In this document: positions 3,140-49,310 of the stretch, in pieces
Position numbering within the stretch: position 1 is the first letter of the stretch
Layout of the letters: every line of letters begins with the position of its first letter
From: Psammoneis japonica
Taxonomy: Eukaryota
Direction of reading: 5' to 3'
DNA length: 63,616 nucleotides
Assembly: GCA_008632985.1 (NCBI GenBank)
Contig: QPGO01000304.1
Location: 1 to 63,616, forward strand
Translations under genes and position numbers: made by a program
Notes under the pieces: model-generated
Seen by the model: only the letters and a program-made list of their open reading frames with translations
Database searches by the model: none
What the model was told of the DNA's origin: nothing

Positions 3140-3218
3140 CTGGTGTTGGTTGTTGGCAGTGTTGAGGAGTTGTGGTTGTGGCTCGTGGCTCGCGTGCACG
3201 GTGCATGCAGTGCAGTGC

Positions 3219-3249
<31 letters not shown>

Positions 3250-6200
3250 TGCGCAGGTGCGTGCGTGCGGTGTTACGGGCCAGTGTCTGCGGGCATGCAG
3301 GAAATGCTGGCAGGGGTTTGAGAGATGGGGTGGCAAGGTGAGTTGTACTCTAGTTTGGTGGAACAGCGGGCGAGTTGGTCGGCTTGGCGTTTGGCAACCA
3401 TGAGACTGAGGCTCTGAAGGCCCCTTGCTGTGCCGCATGGCGTGGGGCAGTGTGGTGGTGGGCAAAGCCCAAATGTGGGTGTGGGGTTGACATGCACGCT
3501 GTCGTCCTTCCACAGAGAGGCGGCTGTGACAGCAGAAAGAACTCCTGAAGGCAAGAGTTGGGCACAGGTGTGCATGAAGTGTGGGCAGCTGGATGTTGGA
3601 AAGAGGACATGGGTGCTGGGACAGGGTGGCTCTGGTTGGCTCCAAAGAGGAGGAGTTGTTGGAATTTCTCGTCTTGCCGACTGGTCTGGTGTGTCAGTCT
3701 CGCTGATCCCCATGCTCACTGTTGCATGGGCTGCAAACACTGCTCTCTGCTGACTGCCATGTTGTCCTGGTGCAGAAGCTGAAAAGTGAGCATGAGACCC
3801 ACCCTCTTGGTGGGCTGCAAAGGTTGATTCACCACGTCACCAACAATTGTCAGTCGCCAGTGTCGCTTTCACTTTTCAACTTTGTCTGTGTCTCTGCACT
3901 CCAAAAACTGCATCACACACTGATGATGATCCAACAGGAGTCCTCTCCATCATGCAGGCAAACACCCAGGAGGCTCCCAAGTGTTCAATGACAAATGGGG
4001 CAAAGCAGATGCATGCCCACTCAACTCACAGCAGTCATGAGAGTTGGCCCATGCTGGACTTCATGGTTTCTGTTGAACTTCTGCTTGGCACTCATGTGGT
4101 GTGCCTCAGCCAAAGGGTTGAGATTGAGGACAGAGGCAAGTGCTGGGAGCTGGGAGAGGAGGTGTGGTTTTGTGTTGGGTGTGGTGGCAGGGTGTGGCAG
4201 GTGGGTGGGTGGTGCATGGTGTTCTGTTGTCTGCTCACACATTGTTTTTGCACACTCCTGTGCTTTGGTGGTTGCATCATTCACTCACAATTCACAGGTT
4301 GCTGGGCTCTCAAACCCCACAACCATCAATTGCTGAGCAAGCCAGAATTGCTTCTGGACTCACCACACACTCAAAACTGACAACTGCACAGAGATGTGTG
4401 TGCAAAAGGAATTGGGCAGAGAGCAATTGTGAGCCAGCTGCTCTGGCTTGCAGCTGCTCTGGCTTGCAGCTGCTGCTCAGTCACCAACTTGCCCAGGAAC
4501 ACATGGCCATTCTTGACTTTTTGTGTGCCACGGCAAGAGCAGTGCAGAGCCTGCCCTTCAGTGCTGCTTTGTTGAGAAGATTGTTGTTCATCCATTGCTG
4601 GCATTTGCAAGATCAAAAAATGCATCTTTGTCCTTGGGCCAGCATGCAGTGACCCCACACCTGGGGCACTGGCCATGACTCAATTGCCATCAAACACCAT
4701 GCAGCAAGTTGACCTGGAGGCTGTGAGCGAGCCAAACCCAACAAAGATTGTGCCCTAAAGAGCGTGGTTTGTTGAGGATGAAAAGTTGGTTCTGCCATGT
4801 TGCTGTGTTGTTGACTCTTGTGCATGCTTTGCTGGCTTCCCACTTGCTTCACTTGCGTGCAAATCTTGCAAGCCAGATGTCTCATTGATGCTGGAGAAAG
4901 GGCACTTGCTGACATTGTGGCCAATTGCCTCCATCTTGAGAGTGGACACTGCAAGTTGGGCAAGGTGTCTTTTTTGAGAAGCTGGCACTTTGCTGGTGCA
5001 GCACTCTGCCTTGTCAGCTGGAATGACCTTTGAGATGAGCAAGAAAGCACCTTTCCCCCAGCAGGCTTCTTCGCCAGCTGAACAAGAGTGAAGTGCAATC
5101 CACAATCTTGAGCTCCTGGCAAATTTGCTGGCACCTGACCTTGATTGTCAGACCGCTGCTGCACAAATGTTTGCCCCTCCTTCCTGACAGGAAATGAGTT
5201 GGAGAATCTGAGAGAAACCCCTGCCGAGCATTGCAGCACATCAGAGATGACAAGAATGCCAGAGCCCCAAGCTGTCTTTGGATTTGTGCATGACAGTGAC
5301 TGGAAAGGGCAGTGATGCCAACTTTGCCTTTGCTCTCTGGAGACAATTGCAAAGGGAAACAAAAGATGTTGGTGTTGCAAAAAAGACAAGAAGACACAAC
5401 TCAAAGCTCAGCGAACCCTGGAGAGAAGCACCAGCTGGTGGCGTGCAAAGCAGACAAGCATTGAATTCACTCACATCAGCCATTTTGAATGCCAAATTCC
5501 AATCAAACCCCAAAACAGTGATTTTGGTCTTCTTGAGAAAAACTCTTTGTTGGCTGATGCTCAAGCAGCCAGCAGCTTCCTTGAAATGCCAGCTGGCCCA
5601 GCGGTCTTTTTTCAGCCTTTTGTCCAACTTTTCAGCAAAACAATGACATTTCTAGCCCTGCCTCTACCTCACACATCATCATCATCTGGACATGGATGTC
5701 ATGACTTTTGATGCTTTGTTCTTTTTCAAATCCTTCATTTTGACAATGCTCCTCATGACCCTCAATTGTGGCTTTTGGCTGGCTCAGTTGCCAGCAGCCT
5801 TTTGTCCCTCCAGATTGGAGCAAAGTTTTCTTTCTCCTCAAAGACAAGGCAACAAGAAGTCTGTGTCAGGGCAAAGAAGCTTTTCAGACTTGGCAGCTCT
5901 TGAGGCAAAGAATCTGCAACAAGCCTCTTGTCTAAGTGCTTGTCCTTCTCACCTCTTGCTCTGCATCCGTGCCTCCCTCCCCCCCCATGATTGTTGTTTT
6001 TCAGAGTGACAACCAGCCAACAGATTTTTCAAGCAAGGCGTGGCAACAGCCAGCAACATTGTCTCATTGAAACAAGGTGAACAACAGCTTTGAAGAACCA
6101 AAGTCAGGATGTTGATCATGGCAAAGTGATGTGTGTCTCTGTGGAGTCCCAACAAAGAGATGTTGTTGGCAAAGCTGCCAGCAACACCAACGGGCTTCAT

Positions 6201-7310
6201 GGTGCAATGCTCGCTGCACTTTCAACACAGCAAATGAAGCAAAAAGACATTTGGCAAATGGAAAACAGGGCTCTGTTGTTGCGTGTGGCATGGGTTGCTC
6301 TGCCACAAAAGCGGAGCTCTGCTGTGGGGCAAGGAAGATGACAAACAACATTGCCGCAATGAGCTGCCTGTTGTTCTGTTGTCAGACACAGGGAGAGCCA
6401 ACCTTGAGCTCTTTGGACAGACCTGGGCATGTTTGGACAACTGACTTGTCATGCACAATGCTCTGGGTGCACACTCATTGTGTGCCAACTTCTCATCATT
6501 GCGCGCTGATTCTTCACAAACAAAAAGGAAACCAAGCATCACAGCAGACAGCATCAGGACTCAAAGTTGTGGCTGGAAGAGTCAGTGGCCAAATGGAAGT
6601 CACTCTTGCTGTGCCAAACTTAAATGACCTGGAGTTGAAGATGAAAGAACCTCCCTCCCAGAGACTGCAAGGCTTTTGCCTGCAAGCTCTGTTCTTTGCA
6701 TTGACCACCAACTCAGCTCCTGACAGGCTGAAAGCAAATGGAGATTTTCCAATGAGGCAGGGACCCATGCACAGCTTTTGCTGCGAATGTTGCGCCCTTG
6801 TTCACACAGAAATGATTGAAACCTTGGGAAGCTGTGCAACAAAATCTTTGCAGACCATTGCTGTCAAAAAAGATGACTTTGAGAGAGATCAGAAAATCTT
6901 TGTGCCATCATCATCCACACCCCAACCTGCCAACAGCTGGAGAGAAGGTTGTTTTTGGCAGAGTCAAGAAACAGAACAGATCCAGCCAAGAAGCTGGGGG
7001 GGATGCAATTGTGACATGCATCTGTCTTGTTCATGTGCTGTGTTGTGCATGGAGCACCACTCAAGGGAACAGCTCTTTTTGTTGAAGATGTGGCAGCCTG
7101 TGTTGGCCTGCTGTGCCAGAAGTCTGCAGTGTGTCCGCAGTGCGTGAGTGGCAGCGAACTGTGGGGGGATGACTCTTTTGCCAATGTGGAAGATGCGCTG
7201 TCAATCTTCAATTCCCTGGGGCACATTTGGGAGAGACCCTGGTGGATGACACCCAAGACTGGCTCTTGCCACACTGCCAACCAAATTTGCATGACCAAAT
7301 GGACATTTGA
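3140..7310. mobile_element. Eroded repeat/TE-like island 1 (TpA- and CpG-depleted, TG/CA-rich); family not identifiable
   Basis: Only a handful of TA dinucleotides in about 4 kb. ORFs are Cys/His/Gln-rich and nearly Tyr-free. Sharp return to normal composition near 7310. Confidence 0.6.
3219..3248 (+). repeat. (GGCA)n microsatellite
   Basis: ggcaggcaggcaggcaggcaggcaggcagg. Confidence 0.9.
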
Positions 7311-7574
7311 AGTTCGGCGGCCTTACTCGCCTTGCTCAGCTTGGGCGCTTAGCTTGCTCGCTCGCTTGCCTTGCCATGAATGTAATTAACAGCACAAGTG
7401 CTCATTACTCATCACCTTTTACCACCACTTCAATCTTCGCGGCCTCGCTCCATGATCTCTATTTCTTGTACGGTATACGGTATCTCCATTTCGTCGGCGA
7501 CGTGTTATTGCTGTTCTTCGTGACGGCCGAACCAAAATGCCTTGACATTCACCAATGTGGTATCGTTCGTCGCC

Positions 7575-9401: not shown

Positions 9402-9546
9402 ACTACCAACAAATAAATTACAGAACCCTTGCGTTTATCTTTTGATTTAATCGCTGGAGAGCGGGTTTTGTTGCTTTCCCATGGCTGCAGTGGCCATGGA
9501 GAGAATCCATATACGGTATGAATGTGCTCGTAATGGATAAGTTCAT

Positions 9547-10675
9547 CTATCTCACCAAGTGGAATGTCGCTCCGCCTTCTTCGCCGGAAGACGAAAACAC
9601 CTTGATCAGGCTTCCTGAATGCGGCCTCAGCGGTGGATTCTCGATGTAAACGCCGATTTCTCTGGCAATGTCTATCGGCTTTGTCCACTTGTTAAAGTCT
9701 GCCTTGGGGTCAGCATCACGGTTCGTGGGGGTATCAATCATGGTTGGTAGAATTCCAATAGCGGTGAGCGTATCCAAGTATTGACCACTGCCCTGACTGC
9801 GGACTCGACGTCCATCCTTTCGCTTCGGCTTTGATGTGGCCGACTTTCCGGTACTTGCGCCTAGAGTCTGTACAAAGTGATGAGCCGCAGCCTTAGCAAG
9901 TCCATATCCCATCATGCCAGGTGTAGGAGATAATGCTGCTGTAGCTCCAATGACAACAAAAAGTCCTTTTGCGACAAAGAACAAAATGCGGTGAGAAGCA
10001 GGACATTTGGTTCTGGAGTACATTGAGGCAGAAACAAAAGATGCCAGTAGCACAGTCATCATATTTACCTTCATCTCCCATGAATCGTTCTGCCACATGC
10101 CCGGCAGCTACCACCGGGTGGAGGTTCATTCGCGTCATTCTATCGATGCAATCTCCGTACCGAACTGCACCTTCAATCACTTCGTCACTAGTAGCATCCA
10201 GACTAACCGGTGTAGGATCTCCCTCCCATCCACCGCTGGCAACCACAATAGCATCTAGTTGTCCTTCATCCAATGCATTGCCAACCCCCTTGACAAGACG
10301 AGTCGTAAGGTCAGCCAGCGTGGGATTCTGACCAACGTGAGGGAGTGCCACAAAGTCACCCACCCCCCAATCAGCACTGTGGTCTAATTCTACAAGATCT
10401 GCCCCTATAACAGTCATGCCCAAATCTCTTCCCAAATGCTTTGACACTGTTCGTCCCAGCGCGCCCGACGATCCCAGCACCAATACGGACGCAGCATCAT
10501 CTGCCACCGAGGATACCATTGTACGCCTCATAACTTCAATTGGAAAGCTTGATAGATTTTTATTGTCCCACGTCAGACACGAAGATAACTTATTTGACTC
10601 ATTGCAAAGGGTACGCGACGTTCTTATCGTAGCCAAACGGATGTGCCCCGACGCGCCAGTAAGCACCGGTAACAT
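9547..10675 (-). CDS. QDPR: Dihydropteridine reductase (SDR family), one intron at about 9966-10068
   Basis: VLVLGSSGALG, VASGGWEG, GATAALSPTPGMMGYGLAKAAAHH, ILPTMIDTPTNR...ADFNKWT. Confidence 0.88.
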
Positions 10676-11008
10676 AATTCCCTGATTTCACCCGATCGTA
10701 AGATTTTNTAACAGTCATGCCCAAATCTCTTCCCAAATGCTTTGACACTGTTCGTCCCAGCGCGCCCGACGATCCCAGCACCAATACGGACGCAGCATCA
10801 TCTGCCACCGAGGATACCATTGTACGCCTCATAATTTCAATTGGAAAGCTTGATAGATTTTTATTCTCCCACGTCAGACACGAAGATAACTTATTTGACT
10901 CATTGCAAAGGGTACGCGACGTTCTTATCGTAGCCAAACGGATGTGCCCCGACGCGCCAGTAAGCACCGGTAACATAATTCCCTGATTTCACCCGGTCGT
11001 AAGATTTT
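10409..11008. repeat. About 300 bp direct duplication of the QDPR 5' region, joined at a single N (10708); probable overlap/haplotype artefact
   Basis: 10409-10707 matches 10710-11008 with about 3 SNPs. Confidence 0.8.
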
Positions 11009-11269
11009 CGATGTTGCTTTTTTGTGTTCGTCTCTATTTCAATTGACGGACAGACACGCGTCGCCTTTCGGGGACCTTAGTTTTCCTTTGCCGATTGTAA
11101 TCAGTGCTTGTATGACAGCGTTGTGGAGAAGCACATTGCGATGCTGGAGTTTTCAACATCTAACTTCGGGTGATGTATTTTGAAGCACAGTCGCCTATAG
11201 AGCTGAAGCGCGTAAAGTTCGAGCGCCAGTCAAATTACCTGTGGGCTCAACTTGAGCCTGTGAAATTAC

Positions 11270-13245
11270 GGTGGTGGCAAGAGGTGCAGCAAACAATCTC
11301 TTGAGTGACCACACCATGCTTTCACTGACCACCCTGTGGGCAAGTGGTTCAAAGATTTTCCCTGTGTGTGAGTGTGGGTGGGTGATGGCCATCAATGACT
11401 TCACACACACACACACACGTGTCGAAAAATGTGCCCAGAGGGGCGACACACCCGCCCATGTGGTGTGCAGTGGGACATCGCTTGGTTGATCATGTGGGAA
11501 TGGAAAAGCCAATTGATTTGATGCACAGACACACAAGAGTGAACCACAATGCCATCCTTCACACACACGAGCACCACACACAGCAGCAGTGCCAAAATCA
11601 TCGTGGTTGTTCACCCAGCCACGCTGCACATTCTCTCTCTTTCTCCTCTGCTTTTTCTTGATTTTCAGAGCCCTGCACATGTGCTTCTGTGTGCCTTGAC
11701 ATCAGCAGCACATTTGCCTTCTTTCTGCACCTGCATCCCCACTGCCAGGCTTGCTTTTTAAGAAACCCGCATTTCATGTGTTTGAAGCAAGTCATGGGTG
11801 CAGCAGAGAGAAGAGAGTTTTGTGAAAAGCACGTTGTTGTTTTTTCCCACAACAATCACTGCACATTCTTTTGTGCACAATTGTGACTCACCCAATGCGT
11901 TGCATCCATCGCTTGCTGACTTTTGAAAGCACAGTGCTTGCCCACACCACATGAGAGTTCACACCCCGATCAGTTGTCTTTGCACACAAAAGAGCTGCTG
12001 CACTGCCCTTTTCTTGCTGAAAGAAAGAACAACAAAACAACAGCATTGCTTGGGTGGAGCTCAGCTTTCTGGCACAAGCAAGGCAAAAAAGGCAATGCTT
12101 GGGCACATCTCAGCAAAGTTTTTTCAAAACAACTGATCGCCGCCACTTGGAGAGCATGTTTTCTGCTCAGCACAGTGGGAGCCAAGAAGCAAAGACAAGC
12201 AAAGTTGTGCATGTTGTGCCACTCCTCCATGCAAGGACCACATGCTGCTGTGACCATGACACAAAATCTGACTTTCTCTTTCACCTGACAAGATGTCAGT
12301 TCCTGGGGCACTTGTTCAAAGGGCAAAAAGAGCACTTCTTGATCTGCAGTCCCCTCACTCTACACCGACACATGAAGCATGCAATCTGGTGGATGGCTGC
12401 TGCAGAACTCATGAACAGTGCTGCAAGATGCTGCAGGGTGTGCTTGCTGTTGCAATGTTGTTGCACTTGTCAAGAACACACTGCACACACCAGCACATTG
12501 GTCAACACTCATGTCTCCTTTTTCCCATTGCAGCTTGTCTGCTGACTTTGCTTTCACCCTCATCCTCCCCAACACAGTGTTGCACCCTTTGCCTTGGTTT
12601 GTCAACTGCACAACTTGAAATGATGCAGCAGTTTTGGTGTTTTGGTCTGTGTTGAAGCAGCATGCCAACACTCAAGCAACAAGGCAGACGAAGGCAGCGT
12701 CGGCTCACACAGCACACAGCAAGCCCTGTCTCCCGCAACTTGTGGTGCTTTACAGAAAACAAGGTGTGTGCCAGGCAGGTTGGTGCTTCAACAACATTTT
12801 GACTTTCTTGTTCGCATGTTTTCAGGATCTGCTGCTGTCTGGGCCAACTCTTTCACTCTGTCGATGTCAAGTGCCACGTGCAGAGAACACACAAATTGTT
12901 GTGGAAGAAGGGCAGAAAGAACAAGAGTGGAGTGAACACACCACTGGCATTGTGGAATGGTTTTGTTGTTCATGCATCAGAAATGAGCAACAATGGCATC
13001 TTTCCATTGTGGCAAACTGAGAAAAACACTCTGTGGCACCCAGAGCAAACTCGCAGAACTTGGCTGTTCTTGTCTCGCAGCTTTGCAGCTGTCCCTCTGT
13101 AAAACAGAGAGGTGCTTCTTGTTCTTGTGCAGCCATCTTGTTGTCGCATGATCACCAGCCACCATGTCGAATTCACCAGAGGATTCATCCACAAAACGCC
13201 CAGCTGCCCATCATGTGGAATGAAATTAAAAATGAGCGTTGGTTT
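11270..13245. mobile_element. Eroded repeat/TE-like island 2 (TpA/CpG-depleted)
   Basis: TA nearly absent, CG strongly reduced, (CA)n tracts, no recognisable intact ORF. Confidence 0.55.
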
Positions 13246-13521
13246 TTGTGTCTCGAAGAAAAGTCATTATCCGGAGAGGAATCGGCAGTGATCACGTCAC
13301 CTGCCGAAAGCTTCTTTTGACGTAAGGCGTGCAACGAATTTTGACCGTATGATGGACATCACGTCAAGTCACGTGACGCGTTTTCGCAAGATCCGATCGC
13401 TCGCTTCACCTCTCACCTCTCTGTGATTTTTTGTCCCGTCTCCCATCCCTCTCACAATATTGAATATTATCCGAAAGTAAGAAAAAGGAACCTGCCAACT
13501 GTTTACTCCAAACATTCAACC

Positions 13522-27444: not shown

Positions 27445-30400
27445 ATGCCAGCAGTCCTGGAACTCTCTCTGCCCTTCCTTGCATGGACTGGGATGGGGAG
27501 ATTGTGGTGGATGATGGTGGAAATGATTTTCCACCTCGAAACTAGCCACAATCATGGCAACAGCAGAAGTGGGAGCTGCAGCAGTGCAAGAAATCACGGC
27601 TGCTTCTTTGTCATCAATTCCTGTTCCTCATTCTTCCTCATCTCTCCTGGCATTCCTTGAGTCCCCATTCCACCTCATTGCTTGTCGTCATTGCGGTGTG
27701 ACCAGATGTTGTCACCAAACAAACAGCTCGCAGCGTCACTTCAGAGGAGTTGCTTCACATTGTCACAAACATGAAGCTGCTTGATTTTGTTGAGATGACC
27801 CTGGAGAACTCTTGATGCTTGTCCAAATGAACAAACAGATGCTTGAGAATGCAAGCACCAGCTGATTGCCTTTCATCTGACCTGAGACACAGTGTCTGTG
27901 GACAAACCTCGATGCAGCAGGTTCTGAGCTCATTCTCATGCTTCCCAACATGTTTGCCCCACAATTGTGAGAATGCAAGTTGGTTTGTTGTCAGACTTCT
28001 GGCAAAAGTTTGAAAACAAGGGGGTGAAGTTCCATCATTTCAGCGCATGCAAGATTTTGTCAGATCATGCCAGAAGAACACCCAACTTGTCTCACAATGT
28101 CAAGGGCTGCCCAGCTGAATCACCAATCAAAAGTGCATGATCCTGCTGTGAGCAATGTCATGTGTGGAATGAAGCACCTCTGTGTCAACTTTGACAACAG
28201 CACAGCAGACACCAAGCATTTGAAGACCAGCCAAGAAACCTTCAAGGCTTGCCATGGCTGTGGTCAACATCAGGTGCAGCAATCCATGCAGGAGCACACA
28301 GAACTGTGCAGCAAGACCTGATGAAGAAGAACAAGGCATGTCAGAGAATGGCTTCAAAATGTTTGTGATTGCACTCTGCTTTCTCATCACTTGCCCCCCA
28401 GAGAGTGCCAAGATTGCTTCCAAGGGCTTTGGAGTTTGTGGGCAATGCTGCCCCCCCCCCCCCCAGGGAGAGAGCATGTGTGGAAATGAACTGACCAATT
28501 CACAGCACATTGAAGCTCAAAAATTTGTTTGGCTTTCATCAATGTTGACCACCCTTGTGGAGGATGTGGAGATGCTTGCAATTGTGGAGAATGTGCCCCC
28601 CACTTTTGGATTGAAAAAAAAAAAAGCATCTGCTGCTCAACAGAGACAGAAGGCACTGGTGTCTCTCACAATTTGGTGGTCCTGCTCTCAAGCATGAGAC
28701 TGGAATCCACACTTGCTCTTCAACTTGTGTGTGGATTGCTGGTCCCTTCAGAGGTAGAAAACATGACATGTGGCACAATTTTTTGCTGGTGAGGAGGATG
28801 AGAGCACAACAGGTGACTTTGCAAAGAGCTCGGTTGGGAACCTTGCCTGGTGCTCTGAGGCAAAATCCCAGATGGATGGCATGCCATTGCTGGAGGGGGT
28901 CATCCAGGCGCAGGAAGATGATTGTGGTGCCAAGCTCCATTTGCCCCCATTCCCAAAGAGCCTCAAGAGCTGCTCCTGAGCCTGCTGTTGATGCGAGCCA
29001 TTCATCAGACATCTCAAAAACTTTGCAGTGTTGTGAGGCAGGCTCTGTCATCAAGTTTGGAAGCATCCTTGGGCATTTGAAGTGTTTTGGGCTGCTGGCC
29101 AGCACCAAATGGAGCATGGTTTGGAGCTCTTTGAAGTTGCATTTTTTCAACTTCTTGCTTGCAGATGGACGCACCACACCCTTTGGCCCTTCCACCACCA
29201 GAATTGAGCAAATCTTCACAGGTGGAGATTTGCTTGCTTGCACCACAAACTTGTCAAATGAAATGTTCTCAGAAATTTGCAACAAACAATTCTCATGCAA
29301 TTTTGTTTTGGAGTGCACATTTGCTGAAACCTCGGGGGGGGGGGGGGGGGGCATTCTTGCAATTTAGGAACTTCAATGTCAACATCCAACACTGGTTTTT
29401 TGCATGCTCAATCTGTGGACAGGAGGAGCCAAATCTCAACCTTCAACAATGAAACTTGTGGTGAGTCACTGCCACAATGGTGCAGTGAATGCCACACCCT
29501 TGGAGCAAATCTCCAATGTTTGGTGTTGGAAGCCTCAAGACAAGAAAAAAATCATTTGAGCTCATGCCAGAGATCATCTCATGGTGGCACTCAAGTGTGA
29601 CATCTGTGTCTTCCACAAGCTGCACCAGTGGGACCTCTGGTGCACATTGCCTTGAGACAAGGTTGTGTCTGCATGCATCCACTGCATTGTGTCAGAGAGA
29701 TGCAATTTTGGGGTCAGGAGTCCACTGCGGTTGAAGCAAATGCCTCAAGGGTGGCAAGAAGGCTGGCATTGTTAGAGTGACTGGGGTTGTCCGGCCCTTG
29801 TCTGGCACCGGGTTCACCACCTGCATGCGGCCATTGCAGGCATGAGGTTGCAATGCAGATTGCATTGGGGTCAATGTTGCCTGGCAAATGCTGTGACCTC
29901 TGATGCTTGTGCTCAGTTTGATGTGGTGCAAAAGCTGTGTGTGTGTCCTGCTCAAATCAAGTTCAAGCCTCAGCTCAGGCCAATGAGCAAGCTCTGGCCC
30001 TGGCTGACTCAGAGAGCAAGCAATGTGTTTGAATCTGTGAAGACCCTTGTGCTTCCACATGGCTTCAATGTTTTTTGACAGGCTGCAAGTGACAAATGAG
30101 ACAGGATTGGTGGCCTGATCAGGCAATTTCCTTTGGCAATTTCTGCAGATGTGTGGTGCAACACCTCCTCCCTCAAGTTGGGGACAAGGCAAGGCAAGGC
30201 AAGGCAAGCAGCATTTGAGGCTGGCCGTTTTGTGACTCTCACACATGGTTTGCATTTGCAGCAAGCTGTTCTCTGTTGCTGCAGGGACCAGAGGGTCTGC
30301 TCATGGATTTGTCAGTGTGTGCCAGTGGACCACCTCCCAAGACATCCTGGTTGTGTGACAGCTCTGTTGTTGGGGAGGGCAAAGGGAGAGCATGGAGAGC

Positions 30401-31340
30401 AGCAGCGCAAGCTTCCAAATTTCAAAGTGACCTCCTTGGGGATCAACATCCAATGCTGGGTGGAGACGATTGCATCCATTCACAGCAATCAAAGCCGCAC
30501 TGGGGGGTGCCACATCCAACCTCCATGGGAAGGTCTTGATGACTCAGGAGCTCAATGTCCTCCTTCATGGGTTCCTTGGTGACATCAGTGATCACCACCT
30601 CACTCAGATGTTCAGGAGAAGTGCAACATGAGTCTTTTTTTGGCAAGGTTCAGATTCTCAAGCCACAGCTCAAAAGGTGTGGGAGGACAACATTGACGTC
30701 CTGAACAGATGAAGAAGAAGAAGAAGAAGGAAAGGTCTGGAGCAGCTGAGTCTGCTCACAAGATGCATCAGCATTGTGTGGATGTTGCTCTTTTGCCACT
30801 TTTGTTCTTCCTGTGCTGCGCCAAGGCTGTGCAATTTGTCGGTTGCAAGTCTTCGTTGGTGTTGGTTGCAGGAAGATCTGGCTCTTCCTTTTGAGGTGGC
30901 CACTGCCGGGGAGTCTCATCAAGGGACATGTGCTCTGCTCACTTCAGTTTTCCTGGGGAGTCACTGATTTGAGGTCAAGGCAGAAGTTGCTGCACTGTAC
31001 CTTTGACAACCCTGCTTTTTGGAACAAGGGGGCAGCAGGGTCTGGTGTGTCTCCCGCAACTTTGAGGTTGCTCTTGTCCTTTGGGTTGAGACACAGCAGA
31101 ATGCTGGAGGTCACAACCTGTGAAGCTGCTCCTCAAAATGCACCCAAGGCAGAGTTGCATTGCTTCTTTCTGCCATGAGCCCCTGTGCTGCCACACAGAA
31201 CCCTGGGGGGGGTTCAGATCACCCATCCCCCCTTGGTGCTCAGCAGAGCTTGCACTGAATTCTCTGCTCCGTGAGATTTCTGAGCACTTCAACATCAGCC
31301 AGATTGCTTCTCAGTGGTTCTTGGCCAGGATTGCAGAAGC
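27445..31340. mobile_element. Eroded repeat/TE-like island 3 (TpA/CpG-depleted)
   Basis: By eye, 0 TA and 1 CG in 28021-28620. Poly-C at 28451, poly-G at about 29334, (AAGGC)n at about 30186. Confidence 0.6.
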
Positions 31341-31539
31341 TCAAGTCGAAAGCGGCGGCTGGTGAAGTGCCGCACCCTGCCTCGAATCCCCTTCAAAAAC
31401 GAAATAAAATGGCGTAGCGACATCGTCCGACCTTCACCCGAGAGAACTCGTCGACTTTGATGAGCCTGTGTTCCAGTGTGTCGTCTCTCCATGGCAAGCA
31501 TCAAGGATGGCCTGAAGCCGCATAATTCTGCGGCGCACC

Positions 31540-38008: not shown

Positions 38009-38079
38009 AACAATGAACTCGATGTGAGACTGCATGCAGAGAGCGATGCACGCATTGAGTCTGCGCTTCTAGAATGCGT

Positions 38080-38384: not shown

Positions 38385-40434
38385 TCGATCTCTGCACAGT
38401 TGCTCCAATCACAAGCATTCAACCTCTGAATTAGCACAGCTGGTGCATTGTCTTTCCATCAGACTGCAAGACTTTCTGTCAAACTCTGTTTCCTGTGTTT
38501 TATTTGCCTTTTGGTTGTTCCTTCACAACACAAGAAATTCATTGCAGACAGGTGTGGTTCCTTGGAAGCAAGTTGCCACTGGCCAGCTTGACAAGTCAGT
38601 CATTTGCACTTTTGTTTTCTTTGAATTTGTGACAAAGTGCTGTCCCAAAATGCCAGCAGCAGATCTTACAATGACAAAAAGCACAGGGAATGATTGAACA
38701 ATCAGCACAAGGTTTTGGTGCAAAAGTGGTGGCGTTTTGATTGAAGGTGGTGGATTGCTTTCCTTGCTTGGAAACCATGGATGATGAGCCAACAGCCTCC
38801 ATTGAGGCAACATGTGGCTGCTGCTGAAAGTGTTGTTGTTGATGGCATCAAGGCACCCATGCAGCAACAAGGGAAGCATGTTCAAAACAAGTGACTCTGT
38901 GATGTTTGATTTGAGTGAGTGTCTCACTTGTGTGCAGGCACACTGCACAGCAGTTGCATCACAACATGCAACAAATTGACAAAAAGAAGCAATGAGCAAG
39001 ATGTGTGAAATCACCTGTGCTCAAGCGATGGTTTGGGTGGACATGATTTGCAAGTTAAACAGCAAAGCTGCAGCCCACAACTCTCCAAAAATTTTGGATT
39101 TGTCTGGTCTGCTGCCTGTGGTGATTTTCTGCTGAGAGCATCCCATGCTGCATGCAGGGCTGCACACTCTCACAGGCAGCCTGTGTTGCTTGACAGATGA
39201 TGTCCAGGTGCAGCTGAATGGGGTGCAGGAAATGACTCAGCAGTGTGGTGGGTGGCACATGATTTCTGGTGCTGCTGTTTTAGAAAGCAGCACAAGCATC
39301 CCGGTTTTCTGCTGATGGCTGTGCTTGGGTTCACACAAGTTGTTGTTGTTCTGGAATCAGAGCAAGCACTCCCAGCACAACATTTGCAAGCTTTGTGCAA
39401 CAGATTGCCACCCAGTCTTCAAAAGAAGCAAATGACTGTTTGTCAACCCAGGCTCTGGCAACAAGAGGAGGAGGTTTCAGTGTGCACAAACAGAACGGCA
39501 CCTGGCTTGCACAAATGTTGTTGTGCTTCCTGCAAGCAAGGTGATGAGTGAGGTCATTCTTGTTGGCTCCAGTCACAAGAAGAGTTGTGAAAATGGAAGC
39601 AACCATCTGATGTCTGGCTGGAGACACCCAAAGCCTTGCTTGCATGTGAACCACAATTGCTTTCTTGTCATGCTGTGCCAAGACCTCCTCCAAAAGACAA
39701 TCTGTGCCCCAAGAAAATGCTGCATGGAAGGACGCCCCAGCCTTGTTGTTCATCACATGTCATGGAGAAATTGCCTGTTCAAGAACATGTGGATGAACAT
39801 TTTGTCTCTGGCAAAAAGAGCAAGCACCAGCAAAGAGCATCAAGTCCATTGGGAGATTCTTCAGATGGCAGCAAAAAAATTGTCAAACCTGTGTGCCCAC
39901 AACAAAGATGTGGAGTGTGCAAAAATGTCTGTTTCTGGAAAATCATGTGAGGGCTCATGGCAGTTTGTAAAACAAGGCTCAAGAAAGTGGCAACATTGCC
40001 AAGGTCAGCAAATGGACAAACACAACAAAGAATGTGGCATTTGTCATGGTCTTCATGTTTGTCAGCTTGTGACTGTGCTGCAAACCTGGTGTGATGCCAT
40101 CACCCAGCAGCCACTTGTTTGTGTGGCATGTCAGGGGGGGGAAAAGAAAGCAAGAACATCAACCGTGATTTGTGCCACATCTGGAGCAGTTGTGTCAATG
40201 AAAAGAGCTGCCAAGCTTGCAACAAGCTCCCCAATGTTTTGCCACCATTCAGGGCAAAAGAAGCACTCTCAAGAGAAGCAACTTCTTTGTGCTTTCGGGG
40301 AAGAGCACAGGTGTGGTGCACAACAACCTTTTTGTTGCAGGCACAAAGAGTTTGGAGAGGAGAGTTCTTGCAGGGATGGCCCAGCCACCCCAAGTCATCA
40401 AGAATGTTGCACCATCCATTGCTGGCATCTTTGT
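38385..40434. mobile_element. Eroded island 4, left part (host of the copia insertion)
   Basis: TpA/CpG-depleted. Continues at 46805 on the other side of the TSD. Confidence 0.6.
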
Positions 40435-40710
40435 TGACAGAAACTGAAGGCAAATGGCAAGAATTCAAACAACAACTCCTTGCTGCTGTCTAAACAGCAG
40501 ATGAGTCTCAGCTCAGAGACCGTCACAGGAGCCGAAAGACGTGCAAGTCGGTACAACTGGGCCACTGTTGTCATTCTTGTGAGCCTTGTGGCTCGAAAGC
40601 AAACTGCATCGCGCGTGAACGCGCGGAACTAAAGCACACAAAACTGTGCGCGGCAAACTAAACAGCGCGCGACACTTCGCGCGCATCCAAATCCTGTTCA
40701 AATCCTGTCA
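40435..40710 (-). repeat. 3' LTR (276 bp)
   Basis: Begins TGACAG and ends CTGTCA. Preceded on the minus strand by the PPT-like AACTGGGGAG (40711-40720). Confidence 0.95.
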
Positions 40711-40719
40711 CTCCCCAGT

Positions 40720-43700
40720 TTGCTTGAGGAGCCACAGAAACAGATTCGACTTCGGATGGAATGAAGTTCCAGAACATGAGGGGGCAGAGAAGGTCCCAGA
40801 TTTGGGAGCAACCCCAATGCTTGCTGAGAATGTCAGCAGGGTTGCGGGAGCCTTCGATGAAGTGGAACTCAAGGCAACCAGAGGCAATTGCCTCACGCAC
40901 ACGGTGGAACGACAGTGCGGTGTGTCGCTTGTGTAACTTGGAGTGCGGGATGGTGGCACTGTCTACAACCGACTTGTTGTCACCGAACATGCAACTAACA
41001 TTACGGATCGGGACGCCAAGGCAGCGCAGGGTGATGCGCAGGTCGACAATCTGCTCAACACAATTCCTTGCGGCAACAAATTCAGATCCGTAGGTTGCAG
41101 TCTCCACGGTGGCTTGTTTCTTGGAGAACCAATCAGCCGGGAATTTGTTGAGGAAGTGGAGCATTCCCATGACAGAGCATCCGGTGAGCATGCAATGGTG
41201 CAAGTTTGCATCGACGTAGTGGGTGGCAGTGACGAACTTGCCAAGGGGCGGTGGAGCGTCCTTCGGGATCATCTCTTCTGCTTCACCATGCACGGAATGC
41301 ATCCATTCATAGGCCGGAGCAGGGAGATCCGAATGGTCGGGCTCTTCCGTGCGAACGCGGAGAGCACCGTGTCGCATCTTGGAGAGGTGCCCACAGACGC
41401 GTTTGGCACGATCCAAGTGGCCTTGACGGGGCGCAGCTCGGAAGCTAGAGAGTGACATGACAGCCGTGGTAATGTCAATTCGACCAAGGGACACTGCCCA
41501 TTGGAGTGAACCAACAAGAGACTGGAACTTGTGAATGCCATCGGATCCCAGCAGTTCGGAAGTGTCCAGTTCGGGGTGGTCACCCTTCTCTAGAGGTGAC
41601 AGGGCGTTGGTGGCAGGTTTCTCCCCAAACAGTCGGGCGTAGCTGTCAACCATGCGCTCGATGTACTTGCGCGGAGACAGGCACAAGGTTCCGTCGGGGT
41701 CCCGGGAAAAGTCGCAACCCAGATGGAACTCAATGGGTCCCGTGCCCTTGAGCTTGAACTTGCACTTTTCCGTGAGAGTGTCGACAAAAGATTGAGGGTC
41801 CTTCATGGCAATGGCGAGGTCATCCACATAAACGGCAATGTGTTCATAGTGGTCGCCGTTCCTGCGCATCCAAATGTCGGGTTCAGCGCAGCAGGGGAAG
41901 AAGCCTTCAGCTCGCAGGCAGTCGGCGAAGCGCTCGTGCCAGCGGAGACCGGAGCTGCGCAGTCCATGCAGTGCCTTGTGGATGACAAGGATGTGTCCTT
42001 CGAGTTTGCCAAATTCGGGTCCAGCCACAATGTAAAGCTTCTCCTTGGTGGTGGCTTCAAGGCAGGCATTGCCAATGTCGGTGGCCCATGTCTCCAGCTC
42101 GTTGAGTTCGGCCAGGAAAATCATCAGCCGAAGGCCACGGAGGGAGACTGCTCCGGAGCAGACACTGTCGACAGGTACGTCCGTGAGGTGCCCGTCGGCT
42201 ACGAGTCGTGCCTTGTGGCGACCGTCGTGTTTCACGTCGCACACCAGGTGCACTCGGATCTTCTTGTGTCCCGCAGGAGGAGTGGAAGACTTGAAGGGCC
42301 CGCAGTCATGGAAGACTTCGTATTCGTTGAGTTGGTCCATCTCGAGATTAGTTGCGTCTCCCCACTTGCGGTTGCCGTTGCGTTCGTCTAGTGACATGGC
42401 ATGTTTGCAGTTCCGGGGAACTTCGTATCCGCACTTGTGGCGAGGTGCAGTGCGGAAGGAGCGAAGCTTGGCTTGGTTGGCCATGCGAAATAGCTTCTTT
42501 TGGCGCCTCGCGATAGTGCGGAACCGCTTCCAGCCATCCGTGTCGAGGAGTCCGTTCTCTCGTGCATAGATGGCACAGGTGACGGGGTCGTCCTTGGCGA
42601 TGATGGCAAGAGGCTCGGACGTGATCTCCCCACTTTCCCATTCAAGCATGATGTTGTAGCTTGAGCCTTTCCAGGTTGGGTCGTGAGGCTTCAGAGGTCC
42701 TTCGTGTGATGCAATGCGTCGAAATTTCCAAATGGTGGTGTCTTCGTCTTCTTGCTCAATGTGATTCATGATGTCATTGCAGGCAAGGACTTCCTCGTAT
42801 TCGTCATTGTTGACAGAGCAGACGAACTCAGTGAGCTCGGGATTGCCGTTCACTTTCCATTCGTGGTCTTCGACGGCCTTGACGATGCGAGCTCTGTGGC
42901 GTTGTCTGTCCTCTTGTGGCTGCATGAGGAAGGTACGTCCAATGATGTCTTGCGGATCGAAAACTGGCATCTTGGGTGTCCTGATCTCCCCATCAGGAGA
43001 ATCGACGGGGTTGTCGTCATGGCGAGATTTGATGATGGGTTCAGGTGGCTCCCCATCAGGAGGATCAAGACGCAGGTTTCGAACGGCAGGTTCGGGGGTG
43101 GCGGAGCGAACGTTGGACCGGCAGAGGATCTTCTGAGTCTCGTCAGATAGGATCTTGAAGGTCATCTGGTGGCCGACGTGCTCAGCAATGCCAACAAAGC
43201 GTCCACGCAACTCACGGGATTCGGACGGCCAATCGGAGTCATCGAGGTGGAAGCACACTGGTTCCCACCAGTGAAAGCGAAGCAATGGGCTGATGTCCGG
43301 GGTGGATCCAGTGAGAGTCTCGAGGGGCGTGCGCCAGTGGAGACGTGGGGACGCTGTGTGGTTGAGTGTGAAGCACACGCACATGAGCGCCAGCAGCCAT
43401 GTGTGGGCGGGCGAACCAAAACGGTCCATGACAGTGTTCGCCATGCGCTTCACGGTCTGGCATCGACGTTCGGCAAAGTTTTGGTGTTGCTGGTGAGGCT
43501 CACTTTGCCAGCTGGAGATGAAGAGGGCGCGCAGGATCCCGAGCACTTTGTTGCTGATCTCAACTTGAGCACGGTCGCTAATGAGTTTGGATGGGGCACC
43601 ACGTTCACGGATCTGATCCTCGAGTGTGTTGACAAACTCTTTGTCCGTCTTAGTGCCGCAGACGTCAGTGACGGTAGACTCGGTGCCAACAAACAGTTGG

Positions 43701-46139
43701 GCGCTGGTGCAACCAGAGTCGACGGCCGGGGTGTCGGCACAAACGGTGTCAGTGGCGAGAGGCTCGTTGCGGAGGTGGAACGTCATCGCCCTTGGGGTCA
43801 ATCGCACGCAGATGACACTCGTAGAACACGTCGTCGTTCGGAATGAGGTGATCATCGAGGGCGGACGCGTGATCGGCAGACAAGGAAGCGGACAAGATGG
43901 TCTCGTTGACAACGACACGGTGACGGTAGTTGCCGCATTCGTCAAATGGGTTGGCAGTGGGATCGTCCTGCAGGTCAGAGATCGCGTCGCACCACTGGTC
44001 GTCGTCAGTGACAGAGTGATCGAGGACGGAAGGGTCCCATGTGTCATCACCGGCAAGGATGACATGGGGCAGGGTGTCCCATTCGGCATCAGTGCAAGGT
44101 CGCATGGCAACACAAGGCAGGCCAGCCTTGATGTCAATGGGGATGACATGCCATCAGGAGTGGCAATGCGTTGCAAGCCGTTGGGCACCTTGACAGAGCG
44201 ATCGTTGACATCCTGTTTGTGCCATTCGAGCTGGCCGCAGGAATGGATGGTCTTGCCCTTTCCCGTGCATGCGCACTGATGGAGGATGGCGATGACGGGA
44301 CCACGCTGGGTCTCAATGACGGCACCAGCGGTGACAATGGGGATGTCCACCAATTGATGATCGTCAATGCCCTGAACGTCGACTTGGCGAGAGGTGCGTG
44401 CAATGACGCGAACGTCGTCGCCAGCAATGCCGCCGTTGGCCCCACGATCGACTAGAGTGCCAGTGCATGTGGAGCGATGAGCAGAGGCAGAGTAAATGAC
44501 ATTGTGGTTGTTGACGCGGCGGCAAGTGCGGCCGTTAAGTTCTGTGTCATCTGCAGAAGCTGGCGGGGTAGAGGAAGCGGCGGATGGCCCCGGTCGACTG
44601 GCATTGGGGGCTTGGTTAGGAGACAACAGACGTTGCAGATCACCGGGTGGCAGTGGCTTGCGCTTGGTGAGGTGCGCCAGGATGGGATCATCCAAAGTGG
44701 CGTCCACATGTGTGGCGGGGTCACCACAGTCAGCAGGAGTCGTGTTGGACAAGTTGACATCACCGTCACTCCCAAGGTGTTGGTCGTGAAGGTTGGCCGT
44801 AACAGACTCATGCAGTTGCTGGCTCGCGGGTTGCGGGGAGGCGGACGAGAATGCTCAAGGATGATCGCCTTGGAGGAATCGGGCAACGAATCCCAGAGCC
44901 GTTGGTGGTCGGGAGGGAGACGTCTCCATTGGACACCGGTGAGGCTGGGACCGCGGGTGCAGGCAGCATTGGCTTGAAGGACGTCAACGTCGCTGTCAAT
45001 GTCGTAGAACACATCGTCGGACGGTTCCTCGGAGCAGACGTCGTGTGCGTGCATGGCGCGTTGGGGAGCTCTGGGTGTCGTCTTGGGTTGAAACGTGCTG
45101 TCGTGCTGAGCTGCCGCGGAGAGGAGCAAGCCACAGCATTGATCGTATGTGAGGCTCTTGCCACTCTGCGTACGATGCTGATCAGCTTGGTTCTTGACAG
45201 CACGGAGTTCCTCGACAGGGTGCACGGCATTCTCGAGCATGACGCGCTTCTGTCCTTCAGAGAAGTGGTCACTGGCAGGGATGAGTGCCTCGTACTTGCA
45301 CAACTGATCTTGCCAATGAAGGATGAACCCGTGGGTCGGACCTTTCCAAGTGCCATCACCAAGACGTGCGGTGGTGAGGTGCGTGAGCAGGGTGGAGGAC
45401 TCGATGGATGCACGGGTGGAGGCAAGCGCGCACTCAGACAAGGAGCGGCAGACGGTCTGTGCNNNNNNNNNNNNNNNNNNNNNNNNNNNNNNNNNNNNNN
45501 NNNNNNNNNNNNNNNNNNNNNNNNNNNNNNNNNNNNNNNNNNNNNNNNNNNNNNNNNNNNNNNNNNNNNNNNNNNNNNNNNNNNNNNNNNNNNNNNNNNN
45601 NNNNNNNNNNNNNNNNNNNNNNNNNNNNNNNNNNNNNNNNNNNNNNNNNNNNNNNNNNNNNNNNNNNNNNNNNNNNNNNNNNNNNNNNNNNNNNNNNNNN
45701 NNNNNNNNNNNNNNNNNNNNNNNNNNNNNNNNNNNNNNNNNNNNNNNNNNNNNNNNNNNNNNNNNNNNNNNNNNNNNNNNTGAGCTGCCGATGGACACAG
45801 AGACATGCAGTCCGGGCTGAGGCGGCAGGCAAGGAACTCGTCATGCGCGAACAAAGAGGAGTCGTTGGCAACGTCAAGACCTTTGTGTGCTTTGACAATG
45901 CACAGACTGACCAGTGCTGCTAACATGTTCTTATAACCACGGGGCAAAGGGATTGCATCAGTGCCATTGTCGCACTCAAGCGAGTCGATTTGGGACGGCA
46001 TGAACGTGAACAGTTCCTGATGCGAGTCCGTGCCGTCTTGGGCCAAAGCCAAACGAAGAGGACTCCCAGCACCTTGGGCAAGCACGGTTCCAACAACGTG
46101 CTCGAAACCATCGGTTTGTTGCTGACGAGTGAGAACCAT
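40720..46139 (-). pseudogene. gag-pol of the copia element (frameshifts, probable internal deletion near 43790, N gap)
   Basis: Gag MVLTRQQQ..., protease LVDRGANGG, integrase ATDTV...SDRAQ...SEPHQQHQNFAERR, RT KARLVA...YVDD, RNaseH YVDAN...GSEF...DNKSV...NPADILSK. Confidence 0.93.
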
Positions 46140-46587
46140 GGCAGACAAAAGTGGTGTCAGGACAATCAGTTCTGGTTGGGAAGCGAAGGCAGACTCGAAA
46201 CTTGGGTGAGAACAGACTTGACTTGAAATGGACTTGACTTGAAATCTTGAACTGTCTTAAAATCAGAAGTCGCCGGGCTTTGTTGTCCCGTTCGTTGTCA
46301 AGTGCTAAACTTCCTGTCCGGTCCGTAGAGTTGTGCCGGCACGTCCGAACCCGCAGCTGGTGGCGCTTTGGGTTGCTTACGAGCGGAGCAGCGGGTTGTA
46401 AACCCCTGCAGGCAAGCTGACTGGAGGTGGACAAGACCCCCGAACCGTTCTTGTTTTATGTCGGTTGGATTTCCCGATCAGGCTGGCCAGTTGACGAGGC
46501 GTTGGCGCTGTGGACGAACGAACAAACGCGGGAAAGCACCCTCGCCCCAACGCAGGCTGCAATCACGGCTGCTTGCTCTCACAGTNN

Positions 46588-46804
46588 ATAGCAGATGAGT
46601 CTCCGCTCAGAGACCGTTGCAGGAGCCGAAAGACGTGTAAGTCGGTATAATCGGGCTGCTGTTGTTATTCTTGTGAGCCTTGTGGCTCGAAAGCAAACTA
46701 CATCGCGCGTGAACGCGCGGAACTAAAGCACACAAAACTGTGCGCGGTAAACTAAACAGCGCGCGATGCTTCGCGCGCATCCAAATCCTGTTCAAATCCT
46801 GTCA
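46588..46804 (-). repeat. 5' LTR (visible part; inner end and PBS lost at the NN gap)
   Basis: Aligns without gaps to 40494-40710 with 11 differing sites. Confidence 0.93.
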
Positions 46805-49310
46805 TTTGTCATTGTCATGATGCACTCAGCTCTTGATTCCATTCTGGCTGAGGTGTCTGACTCAGCCAAGTGCAGTCAGGAGATGATGAGAAATCAACAA
46901 CAGCATTTTTCATGGAATCTAGAACAATTGTGCATGCATGAGAAGAATTTTCAAGCTTGCGACAGGCAGCTCCTTGATGTTTTGCCATTCAGGAATTGTG
47001 CTGTGCTTTCAGGGAAGAGTGCAGGTGTGGCATGCACAGAGACCTTTTTTTGTTGTGTTTTTTTGTTGACACCACAAAGTGCAAAGAGGAGAGTGCACAC
47101 AGAGACTGCCCACCCCAAGTCACCAAGAATGTCATGCTGTCCAATGATGTGCAAACACAAAAACAACTGGACAAAATGTCTTGCAAGCAGAGAGATGCAA
47201 TGCATGGCATCTAATGCCCCCATCATGCACTTCACAGATGCAGCCCAGCAGAGCTGGTGAGAACTTGTTGCACATGTGCTGTGGTGAGGATGTGAGCACT
47301 CAGTCATGGAATGACCATTTTCTGCAGTGTCAGGACAGTGCATTGTGAAATCAATTTCCCCTGTCTTGAAATTCAAATTTGAAAAATGGCATGCTGACCC
47401 AAGGTGACAGACAAGCTGTTTGGTGCAGAAAGTCCAGGAGTGACACCCAGCTTGTGCACCCCATTGGACAAACCTTGGTGGAGGACCAAAAAGAGTTCAG
47501 CATGCACCCAGCAACTTCAACTTGGATGCACCAGAATGCGTCATTTGCAAGATGTGCAGTGAGACTTGTCATCTTAACAAGGATTCTTGCCTCTGGATGG
47601 TGGAATGTTGGACAACAAACTTGGCACCAAGGGCTTTGGTGCTGGCCAGCACTCTCCACCATCGCAATGGCACAACATTCCAAGTGGCTCTGTTGGGAAG
47701 TGCTTCATCACAACATTGGCAGAGTTGCTGCACACGGGCTCAAGACATGAAAGCAGAGCTTGGAGCAGGTTCACAGTGTGCCAATCAGTGATTTTGCAGC
47801 AGGGTTGCAATGCAGAAGGAGGCAAGGACATCAGGACCTGGGACATGGACAAACACAAAATTCTGGCCCAGTCAATGATCAGCTGCTTGAGTGCAATCTA
47901 AAGTCTGCTCAGAGGGAGGAGATGTGCCAGAGCAGTGTGTCACAAAACATTCATGGAGTGGCATCATGAGAAAAGCCAAAGGGAGCATCATCACAGGCAC
48001 ATTTCTGAGGAGTGGGAAAAAGGTGGAATGCTTGCCTGGATGATGCTGATGAGAAGACCAAAAAGATGCCATGTTTGAGAACTTGGAGTCAACACCTGGG
48101 CCAGAGAGTTCTGGGAGAAGATCATTTTCACACATTCAGCAAGCCACCTGGGATCCAAGCTGTCATCATTGCTTGCTGATGGCGCCATCAAGACTTTCAC
48201 ATGAAGACTGTCTGCAAGAGCACAAGTCTTGGCAGATCTGATGCCAGTGCAGCATCAGATGGCTTCTCCATTGCAAAAAGGCCAGCAGGTTGCTTGGAGA
48301 AGTGTGGAGCATGTTCACAAATTGGCTGGCAAATGAGTCACTCTCTGTGGGATGCCTGCCATGCACACTCATGGCAAAAAGAAGCAGCTGATTGCACCAG
48401 ACAAACATGCCTCTGGATGCCCATCTGGCTGGCACAGGAGAGGTGCAGCAGAGAGCCACAGCCAAAGCAATTCTTTCAGCAGTTGCCAGAGCAAAAGCCA
48501 AGGTGAGAGTGATCCACTGTCTGTTCAGTGGAACGACCCTCTCCACTGACACCCCAACACACCAGGAAAATCAAAAGCATGGCAAAAACAGGATTGAAGA
48601 TCTTCCAGTGCAGAAGAGAAGTGGTGAGAGTCATGACTGCCAGACAAACAGAGAGACAGCAAAATGGAAACAAAAAATCCCTTGCGGCACCCTGTGCTGA
48701 ACAATGGCTGACTCACAAAACCAGTCAAATCAATCATCAACAACACCAACAGACTGGGAGGTTGCTCAGAGTGTGAGCAGGACAGCAAGCTGGGAGGTCT
48801 GCGGGGTGACACTAGAGTGTGCTGTGAGAAGGCCTTCCTGACCTTGCCCAATCCAAGAAGAAATCAGGTGGGCGACAGGAAGAGCCAAGCTGGCATCTGA
48901 CAACAACTCCAAGCTGTGCAGCCGCCCCCACACAACAATGGGGAGCTTGCAACATTGGCAGGGTTCTTGGCAGACTTGGACTTCTCCCACCAGCTCACAA
49001 GCTGAATGATCATTTTCCACATGCACTCACCCCTTGACATGCTGGTGACTCCACAGCAGTGGGAAAATCTGGGTCTCAGAGATTTTTTCTTGACTCTCAT
49101 CTGAGCTGAAGGCCCCGCCCAAGCATGCATGATGGACACTCCTGTTCTGCCAACAACTCTGAGAATGCCCTGGCAGGCCAGTCCCAGAATGCAACCTGCT
49201 GGAAAATGCCAGGACCTGCTTTGGAGACCACAGTTCATTGGCGAGATGGAAGCACGCAACAGATGGTTGGCAGAGAAAGCTGAGTTGTGGACCTCTGTCA
49301 TGTCATCCAA
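46805..49310. mobile_element. Eroded island 4, right part
   Basis: TpA/CpG-depleted up to a sharp boundary near 49310. Confidence 0.6.

Follow-up and report, generated by a model that had tools for sequence, protein, structure and literature searches.

Context-dependent TpA hypermutation, favouring a pyrimidine after the adenine, in silent domains and a copia element of contig QPGO01000304.1

The locus examined here raises the question of what has removed nearly all TpA and most CpG from certain stretches of a contig, and of whether the bases around a TpA influence its fate. The window, by which we mean the whole stretch of DNA analysed, comprises the 63,616 nucleotides at positions 1 to 63,616 of contig QPGO01000304.1 (assembly GCA_008632985.1); its G+C content is about 48% and the observed-to-expected ratio (O/E) of CpG is about 1 along most of it. 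Profiles in 1-kb steps reveal five stretches, hereafter islands, in which TpA and CpG are nearly gone and CpA and TpG are doubled; they lie between genes, and their boundaries, set by listing each TA and CG, are precise to tens of bases. An earlier note on this DNA had claimed that the mutator hits 5'-TAY and that YTAR survives (Y being a pyrimidine and R a purine). The evidence set out below supports a real context-dependent mutational process for which TpA is obligatory and a 3' pyrimidine favoured, and which acts on either strand. The islands are as follows.

3352..7323, island 1, with five TAs left (4756, 5653, 5665, 5933, 6621), no Pfam match and no period-3 signal
11268..13099, island 2, with three TAs left (11759, 12361, 12751)
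27544..31404, island 3, with four TAs left (28755, 29365, 29773, 30998)
38433..40490, island 4, forming the left half of a domain divided by a copia insertion, with five TAs left
46805..49319, island 5, forming the right half of the island-4 domain, with five TAs left, all of them YTAR (46920, 47212, 47575, 47899, 48813)

Over their total of 14,289 bp the islands hold 22 TA (O/E 0.02), 128 CG (0.15), 1595 CA (1.82) and 1644 TG (1.81), whereas 42,348 bp of flanks hold 1610 TA (0.57), 2426 CG (0.98), 3080 CA and 3104 TG (1.17 each). Base composition is equal in the two, and the pyrimidine-purine steps TA, CG, CA and TG, taken from the summed counts, make up 23.7% of dinucleotides in islands and 24.1% in flanks. 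The doubling of CA and TG at a constant pyrimidine-purine total indicates that TA and CG were converted by transitions; that is, in these silent non-coding domains TpA and CpG have been turned into TpG and CpA. As far as adenine is concerned only TpA is lost, with no depletion of AA, GA or CA, and the loss is confined to discrete regions with sharp edges. The TA and CpG edges agree within tens of bases at most island boundaries, and at the left boundary of island 1 the loss of TA extends some 400-700 bp beyond that of CpG: between 3123 and 3521 TA is scarce (from about 3123) while CpG is still dense, and CpG thins only from about 3522-3865. A (GGCA)n run lies near 3225-3250, at this same edge.

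None of the islands' 125 stop-to-stop open reading frames (ORFs) of at least 70 aa matches Pfam at E<=0.01, the longest (343 aa, 6116-7144) has no homologue that we could find, a period-3 signal was looked for in the islands and not seen, and ORF lengths lie within the expectation from Markov shuffles (P 0.03-0.83), with no excess of ORFs. Compared with each other, the islands show no likeness except for one 135-bp match at 68%, and are unique within the window; nor do TG and CA cluster coherently by strand in them above the flank level. In a control set of 79 related metagenome copia loci (420,074 bases) there are two stretches of at least 500 bases with at most two TAs, neither of them island-like.

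Assembled contigs of one DNA sequencing run, X1, match islands 2 and 3 with 1-4 letters differing, and one of them spans island 2 with four letters and one gap different over 11500-13855; X1 is possibly the window's own source sample, and so not independent. Within island 3, at 28842-29600, extra X1 contigs, joints and loose ends accumulate (a summed depth of 571.6, where about 55 is seen elsewhere), and the 30-letter loose ends there are apparently rich in TG and CA; part of this island (about 29.2-29.6 kb) is repeat-like in the source reads. Contigs of a further run, X2, leave the islands uncovered, which carries no information on their expression.

The context of the surviving TAs is far from random. 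Fourteen of the 22 are YTAR, seven YTAY or RTAR and one RTAY, close to the roughly 20 survivors and 13 YTAR of the earlier note, whose 12 examples are all real (at approximate positions 4755, 5932, 47212 and 47899 for cTAa; 6621, 39056 and 47575 for tTAa; 5653, 46920 and 48813 for cTAg; 29365 and 39281 for tTAg). The YTAR share is only 16.8% in all flanks (270/1604; Fisher p=1.5e-6) and 23.3% in flank outside long ORFs (86/369; binomial p=6.3e-5), and the Y_R context accounts for about 23% of island CA and TG sites, the source of any new TAs (binomial p=5.4e-5); the excess stands even with an assumed baseline of 30% (p=1.1e-3). Equal depletion of all NTAN contexts, the outcome that the earlier note had named as contrary to its claim, is rejected for islands versus flanks over the ten classes (G=34.1, P=5.5e-5 from 200,000 multinomial draws). 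Expressed per strand, survival in islands relative to flanks is 0.084 for TAA, 0.065 for TAG, 0.025 for TAC and 0.003 for TAT, and a model in which the two strands are hit independently, with hazards taken from RTAY (2.56) and YTAR (0.95), predicts a YTAY survival of 0.030, where 0.024 is observed. It is nonetheless a relative excess that we describe and not survival outright: YTAR stands at 0.98/kb in islands versus 6.38/kb in flanks, a depletion of about 85%, or of an estimated 92% or so on the non-ORF flank baseline. What is supported is a kinetic preference, the process that destroys TpA being a few-fold faster with a pyrimidine after the A (TAY:TAR about 2-6 fold).

The products of conversion carry the same asymmetry. 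In the mixed class a change on the TAY strand yields YTGY (equivalent to RCAR) and a change on the TAR strand yields YCAY (equivalent to RTGR); because the counts are pooled over both strands, a simple strand bias cannot skew them. All five islands have YTGY/YCAY ratios of 1.34-1.94, as compared with 0.95-1.23 in five flank segments; the pooled counts are 1064:646 and 1631:1483, respectively (Fisher p=4.6e-11).

Further evidence comes from a long terminal repeat (LTR) retrotransposon of the copia kind (40496-46804), which divides one TA- and CG-free domain into islands 4 and 5 and whose parts are listed here.

40496..40710, + strand, left LTR, the more TA-depleted copy
46590..46804, + strand, right LTR, which keeps six TAs that read CA or TG in the left LTR
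40658..44854, - strand, partly hypermutated copia polyprotein (RVT_2) in an open frame of 1398 aa

The element is young, and its two LTRs are 93.5% identical over 215 bp. Its TA O/E is 0.23 with a CpG O/E of 0.93, so that the TA process is separable from the loss of CpG, and faster than it. The TAs at 46589, 46638, 46648, 46666, 46699 and 46748 in the right LTR are CA or TG in the left, and all six of the polarised LTR changes are therefore at TA; as the earlier note had it, five are A>G within TAY, read on the strand that changed, and the remaining one lies in TAA (that at 46589, beside two Ns at the LTR edge, is the least certain). The persistence of cTAa in both LTRs, also claimed, is borne out at two CTAA sites. 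Since the LTRs of one insertion have diverged at TA sites, the change took place at the DNA level and after integration. At three further LTR positions the left copy reads CA and the right TG, as expected from independent opposite-strand changes of one ancestral TA (or CG).

The polyprotein records the process at the level of codons. Relative to the 120 relatives listed, which are 59-71% identical to it except for one at 45%, its content of Tyr has fallen to 1.0% versus 3.9% (range 3.03-4.97%), and that of Cys has risen to 3.3% (3.29%) versus 1.0% (at most 1.46%). In the 44 columns where at least 60% of 60 aligned relatives have Tyr, the window copia carries Cys in 17, His in 7, Tyr in 11 and some other residue in 9, against averages of 37.05 Tyr, 0.35 Cys and 0.52 His in the relatives; 24 of the 35 consensus Tyr codons counted as Cys, His or Tyr have thus been lost to Cys or His, and 33/44 Tyr columns are altered, versus 5-26% of those of other residue types (0/8 for M). 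The occurrence of Tyr>His beside Tyr>Cys indicates that both strands were changed. Among YTAY Tyr codons the ratio of Cys to His (TGY:CAY) is 11:2, with nine retained, and among RTAY codons it is 6:5, with two retained; the polarised tally for the mixed class, from YTAY codons and LTRs together, is 16:3 (binomial p=0.0044). RTAY amounts to 11/64 of the surviving TAs of the element versus 31.9% in the relatives (p=0.006). T|A sites that straddle codons, four mutated versus six retained, are too few to use. Set against 58 CpG-rich relatives, the element has gained 12.3 YTGY and 2.8 YCAY per kb and lost 17.6 YTAY, gains that are unconfounded by CpG since CpG is intact in the element, but for which the baseline is imperfect, the element being G+C-richer than these relatives. 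Survivor contexts, product asymmetry and polarised copia changes are the grounds on which we regard the process as motif-dependent.

For the CpG erasure in the same domains, which the earlier note had left unweighed, per-strand survival is 0.11 for TCG, 0.11 for ACG, 0.16 for CCG and 0.24 for GCG, and TCA, TCC and TCT show no depletion in islands. Since transposons of diatoms are described as CpG-methylated by DNMT5 (PMC9998398), this slower loss would most likely reflect deamination of 5-methylcytosine in silenced DNA. A bolder proposal attributes the removal of both self-complementary pyrimidine-purine steps from silenced DNA to a single DNA deaminase, chromatin-guided and of the TadA/ADAT2 kind, which would act quickly on adenine in T-A-Y and more slowly on cytosine in T/A-C-G. 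Amphioxus ADAT2 is described as preferring TCG when it deaminates C in DNA (PMC10354150), and among the CpG contexts here TCG and ACG show the strongest depletion; we nevertheless consider the proposal conceivable but doubtful. If it were true, stramenopile algae as well as Rhizaria would possess a genome defence based on deamination and resembling repeat-induced point mutation (RIP), perhaps widespread in protists of the Stramenopila, Alveolata and Rhizaria (SAR), and in its enzyme nature would have supplied a DNA adenine editor specific for TpA.

Taken as a whole, the observations are probably best explained by TpA hypermutation, with a preference for T-A-Y, by a chromatin-directed DNA adenine deaminase. 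The sequences show a hypermutation of DNA, on both strands and after integration, in which A becomes G only with T before it, the order of speed being TAT at least equal to TAC, then TAG and TAA at about the same lower rate. RTAY presents two good targets and is the first to vanish, YTAY and RTAR are altered mainly on their TAY strand, and YTAR, with two poor targets, is the last to go. The putative agent would be a nucleic-acid adenine deaminase acting on DNA and producing inosine, which is read as G, directed to a chromatin domain as has been proposed for the TpA hypermutation of Bigelowiella natans; that it is of the TadA/ADAT2 type we can only reasonably infer. TadA recognises U33-A34-C35-G36 (PMC10586758), and the likeness drawn by the earlier note, to TadA deaminases that act on U-A-C in tRNA and to base editors derived from TadA, holds at position -1 (T) and at position +1 (a pyrimidine, C in TadA and C or T here, TAT being changed at least as much as TAC) but fails at +2. 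On DNA, ADAT2 is able to deaminate A as well as C (PMC10354150). The responsible enzyme would be expected to have the deaminase fold (HxE...PCxxC); no deaminase domain was found among those ORFs of the window that were scanned with Pfam.

Several points weigh against this explanation or its details. Estimates of the rate ratio spread from about 1.7 to 6; the flank and other baselines are proxies, as the ancestral sequences of the islands are not known; and the product skew of the islands combines TA-derived with CG-derived products. In the copia element the contrast between 11:2 and 6:5 is by itself non-significant (Fisher p=0.18), and the YTAR share of survivors (17/64 versus 18.4% in relatives) is marginal (p=0.068). 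There is no TadA-like preference for G at +2, G following 6/17 Tyr>Cys codons and 7/11 retained Tyr codons, and the adenine context of amphioxus ADAT2 on DNA is given as GAA, not TAY, in PMC10354150. Chemistry centred on A is also indistinguishable by sequence from chemistry centred on T, A>G on one strand being T>C on the other; of the enzymatic, motif-specific adenine modification put forward earlier, the motif dependence is what holds, while adenine and enzyme are supplied by reasoning. The metagenome relatives of the element have to be counted here as well. Among the 79 loci the lowest TA O/E values belong to L068 (2759 bp; 0.31) and L077 (2561 bp; 0.33), which have Cys or His at 14/28 and 8/22 scored Tyr positions, respectively; both are therefore hypermutated too, and TpA hypermutation occurs in other environmental eukaryotes. 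Their product gains lean mildly toward YTGY over YCAY (9.6 versus 6.2 per kb in L068, 6.3 versus 4.7 in L077), their survivor contexts lean in the same direction only weakly, and the polarised bias is not repeated, Cys:His at their YTAY sites being 5:6. The T-A-Y rule may thus be host-dependent, or weaker than the window copia implies.

How far do other explanations account for the same observations? Thymine, not adenine, could be the modified base, the thymine of 5'-R-T-A being altered (for example by a TET/JBP-like oxidation to 5-hydroxymethyl- or 5-formyl-uracil), mispairing with G and yielding T>C, with the T-A-Y rule as a mere complement. Oxidised thymines do mispair with G, and since all our results are symmetric under complementation, T>C in R-T-A fits them equally well. 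We still hold this to be unlikely, as our literature searches gave no precedent for TpA-specific hypermutation driven by thymine, whereas deamination of A yields exactly the transition seen and has been described as an enzymatic reaction on DNA (PMC10354150). It could also be argued that the YTAR excess stems from the sites at which new TAs arise, or from the ancestral composition of the islands, and not from any preference of a mutator: with depletion at 98.5%, some of the survivors may have arisen anew, the ancestral sequence of the islands is beyond reconstruction, and only 22 sites are at stake. The Y_R share of island CA and TG sites is, however, far too low for 14/22, as given above, and the polarised Tyr-codon and LTR changes and the product asymmetry are independent of the survivors, which makes this account improbable.

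Selection would have us regard the islands as functional elements that avoid TA and CG, in the manner of dinucleotide avoidance in RNA viruses or of nuclease avoidance, and it can point to the sharp boundaries and to the fact that both avoided dinucleotides are self-complementary pyrimidine-purine steps. That conserved Tyr codons in the protein of a retrotransposon have fallen to the same process, that the islands lack coding periodicity, ORF excess, Pfam matches and homologues, and that de novo TpA mutation has been shown directly in B. natans (Mettrop et al.) leave it very little probability. Editing of retroelement transcripts by an ADAR-like enzyme, fixed by reverse transcription, is a thought invited by the affected element with a recognisable protein being an LTR retrotransposon. 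The change is found on both strands, with 7 Tyr>His beside 17 Tyr>Cys, the LTRs of a single insertion differ at TA sites, which dates the change after integration, and the non-coding islands carry the same signature. ADARs, which act on double-stranded RNA and would change the sense strand only, prefer a G 3' of the target A, and the editing of the fungal sexual stage prefers UAG, while TAG is here among the least-changed contexts. Even granting that ADARs favour a 5' U (bioRxiv 10.64898/2026.01.13.699255), we find RNA editing hardly credible.

As to the host, Pfam matches in long uninterrupted frames identify, among others, a DEAH helicase, a DEX1-like protein and a pheophorbide-a-oxygenase (PaO)/Rieske protein. 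For the oxygenase, the best-matching named relatives come from diatoms and a raphidophyte (about 41-43% identity), and the nearest Atlas clusters of a ribose-5-phosphate isomerase are mostly Bacillariophyta, a lead only. Three short introns were recognised in X2 contigs, not in X1.

13989-14109, 119 bases skipped, GT..AG (or CT..AC) ends
15945-16032, 86 bases skipped, GT..AG (or CT..AC) ends
16427-16541, 113 bases skipped, GT..AG (or CT..AC) ends

As X2 contigs skip these segments, introns exist but are few, and the run, although recorded as 'DNA?', behaves like spliced RNA. We take the host to be an intron-poor ochrophyte, probably a relative of diatoms, and not Bigelowiella. A syntenic locus was sought through the PaO-like protein in metagenome contigs, where none of 129 pattern matches was confirmed.

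Other parts of the window deserve mention. Positions 1-863 and 49453-50313 form an inverted duplication, 97.6% identical and adjoining island 5, of which the copy at 49824-50531 bears a histone-deacetylase domain; among the 19 substitutions between the copies seven are TA versus CA or TG and three CG versus TG, and duplicated DNA beyond the islands may receive some spill-over of TA-directed change, or may trigger it. Tandem 300-bp copies at 10408-11008, 99% identical around a single N at 10708, are probably an assembly artefact. Inverted paralogous copies of the ribose-5-phosphate isomerase gene, 68% identical, lie at 54977-55735 and 56211-56960. Finally, 61001-63616, which encloses a gap of 710 Ns, combines a TA O/E of 0.32-0.38 with CpG that is normal or high, has no Pfam match and is possibly another partly TA-depleted element.

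The general phenomenon of TpA hypermutation is already in print, and our literature searches found the B. natans preprint to be its sole description, with none on diatoms. According to that work (Mettrop et al., bioRxiv 10.64898/2026.01.13.699255, 2026), 231 of 302 de novo single-nucleotide mutations fell in two integrated viral regions, nearly all of them A>G or T>C and all of those at TpA, at a TpA rate of about 6e-7 per site per generation and with a directly measured mutation rate raised about 1000-fold; the genome contains 124 clusters depleted of TpA and enriched in CpA and TpG, in which domains of reverse transcriptase and of DDE type occur together with many sequences that lack annotation, and an ADAT2 homologue, an adenine deaminase, is proposed as the enzyme. 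The window shares with this system the use of TpA alone as target of A>G, giving TpG and CpA, and the regional confinement; as regards the targeting of mobile DNA, the copia element fits whereas the five islands have no recognisable origin. It differs in being near saturation (TA O/E 0.02 versus a Rho of 0.45 in the nucleocytoplasmic large DNA virus (NCLDV) region of B. natans) and in its host, intron-poor and with proteins nearest to those of diatoms and other ochrophytes, Bigelowiella being a chlorarachniophyte. The words 'CpG', 'trinucleotide', 'context' and 'flanking' do not occur in the text of the preprint as available, where the +1 preference and CpG erasure are not described. New, as far as our literature searches reach, are this preference and the way it acts per strand, the erasure of CpG in the same places, the diatom-like host and the environmental copia elements.

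With fungal RIP and the TCG hypermutation of basidiomycetes the process has in common that it is regional, restricted to transitions, specific for a dinucleotide and inactivates mobile DNA. RIP, however, turns CpA into TpA, creating the very dinucleotide that is destroyed here while CpA and TpG accumulate, and it acts on duplicated DNA, whereas no island has a second copy within the window. ADAR and fungal sexual-stage A-to-I editing of mRNA resemble it in making A>G with a preference for a 5' U, and depart from it in that the change seen here is in DNA, on both strands and with TAR as the poor context. TpA hypermutation being a very recent discovery, the T-A-Y rule, the CpG erasure and the wider occurrence narrow the search for the enzyme, and builders of base editors would find a naturally occurring DNA adenine deaminase of defined motif interesting. 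The rule also predicts a dependence on the +1 base in the published mutation-accumulation data of B. natans. The window, diatom-like and intron-poor, is a second lineage, and with the two environmental copia elements it suggests a TpA defence broader than one chlorarachniophyte.

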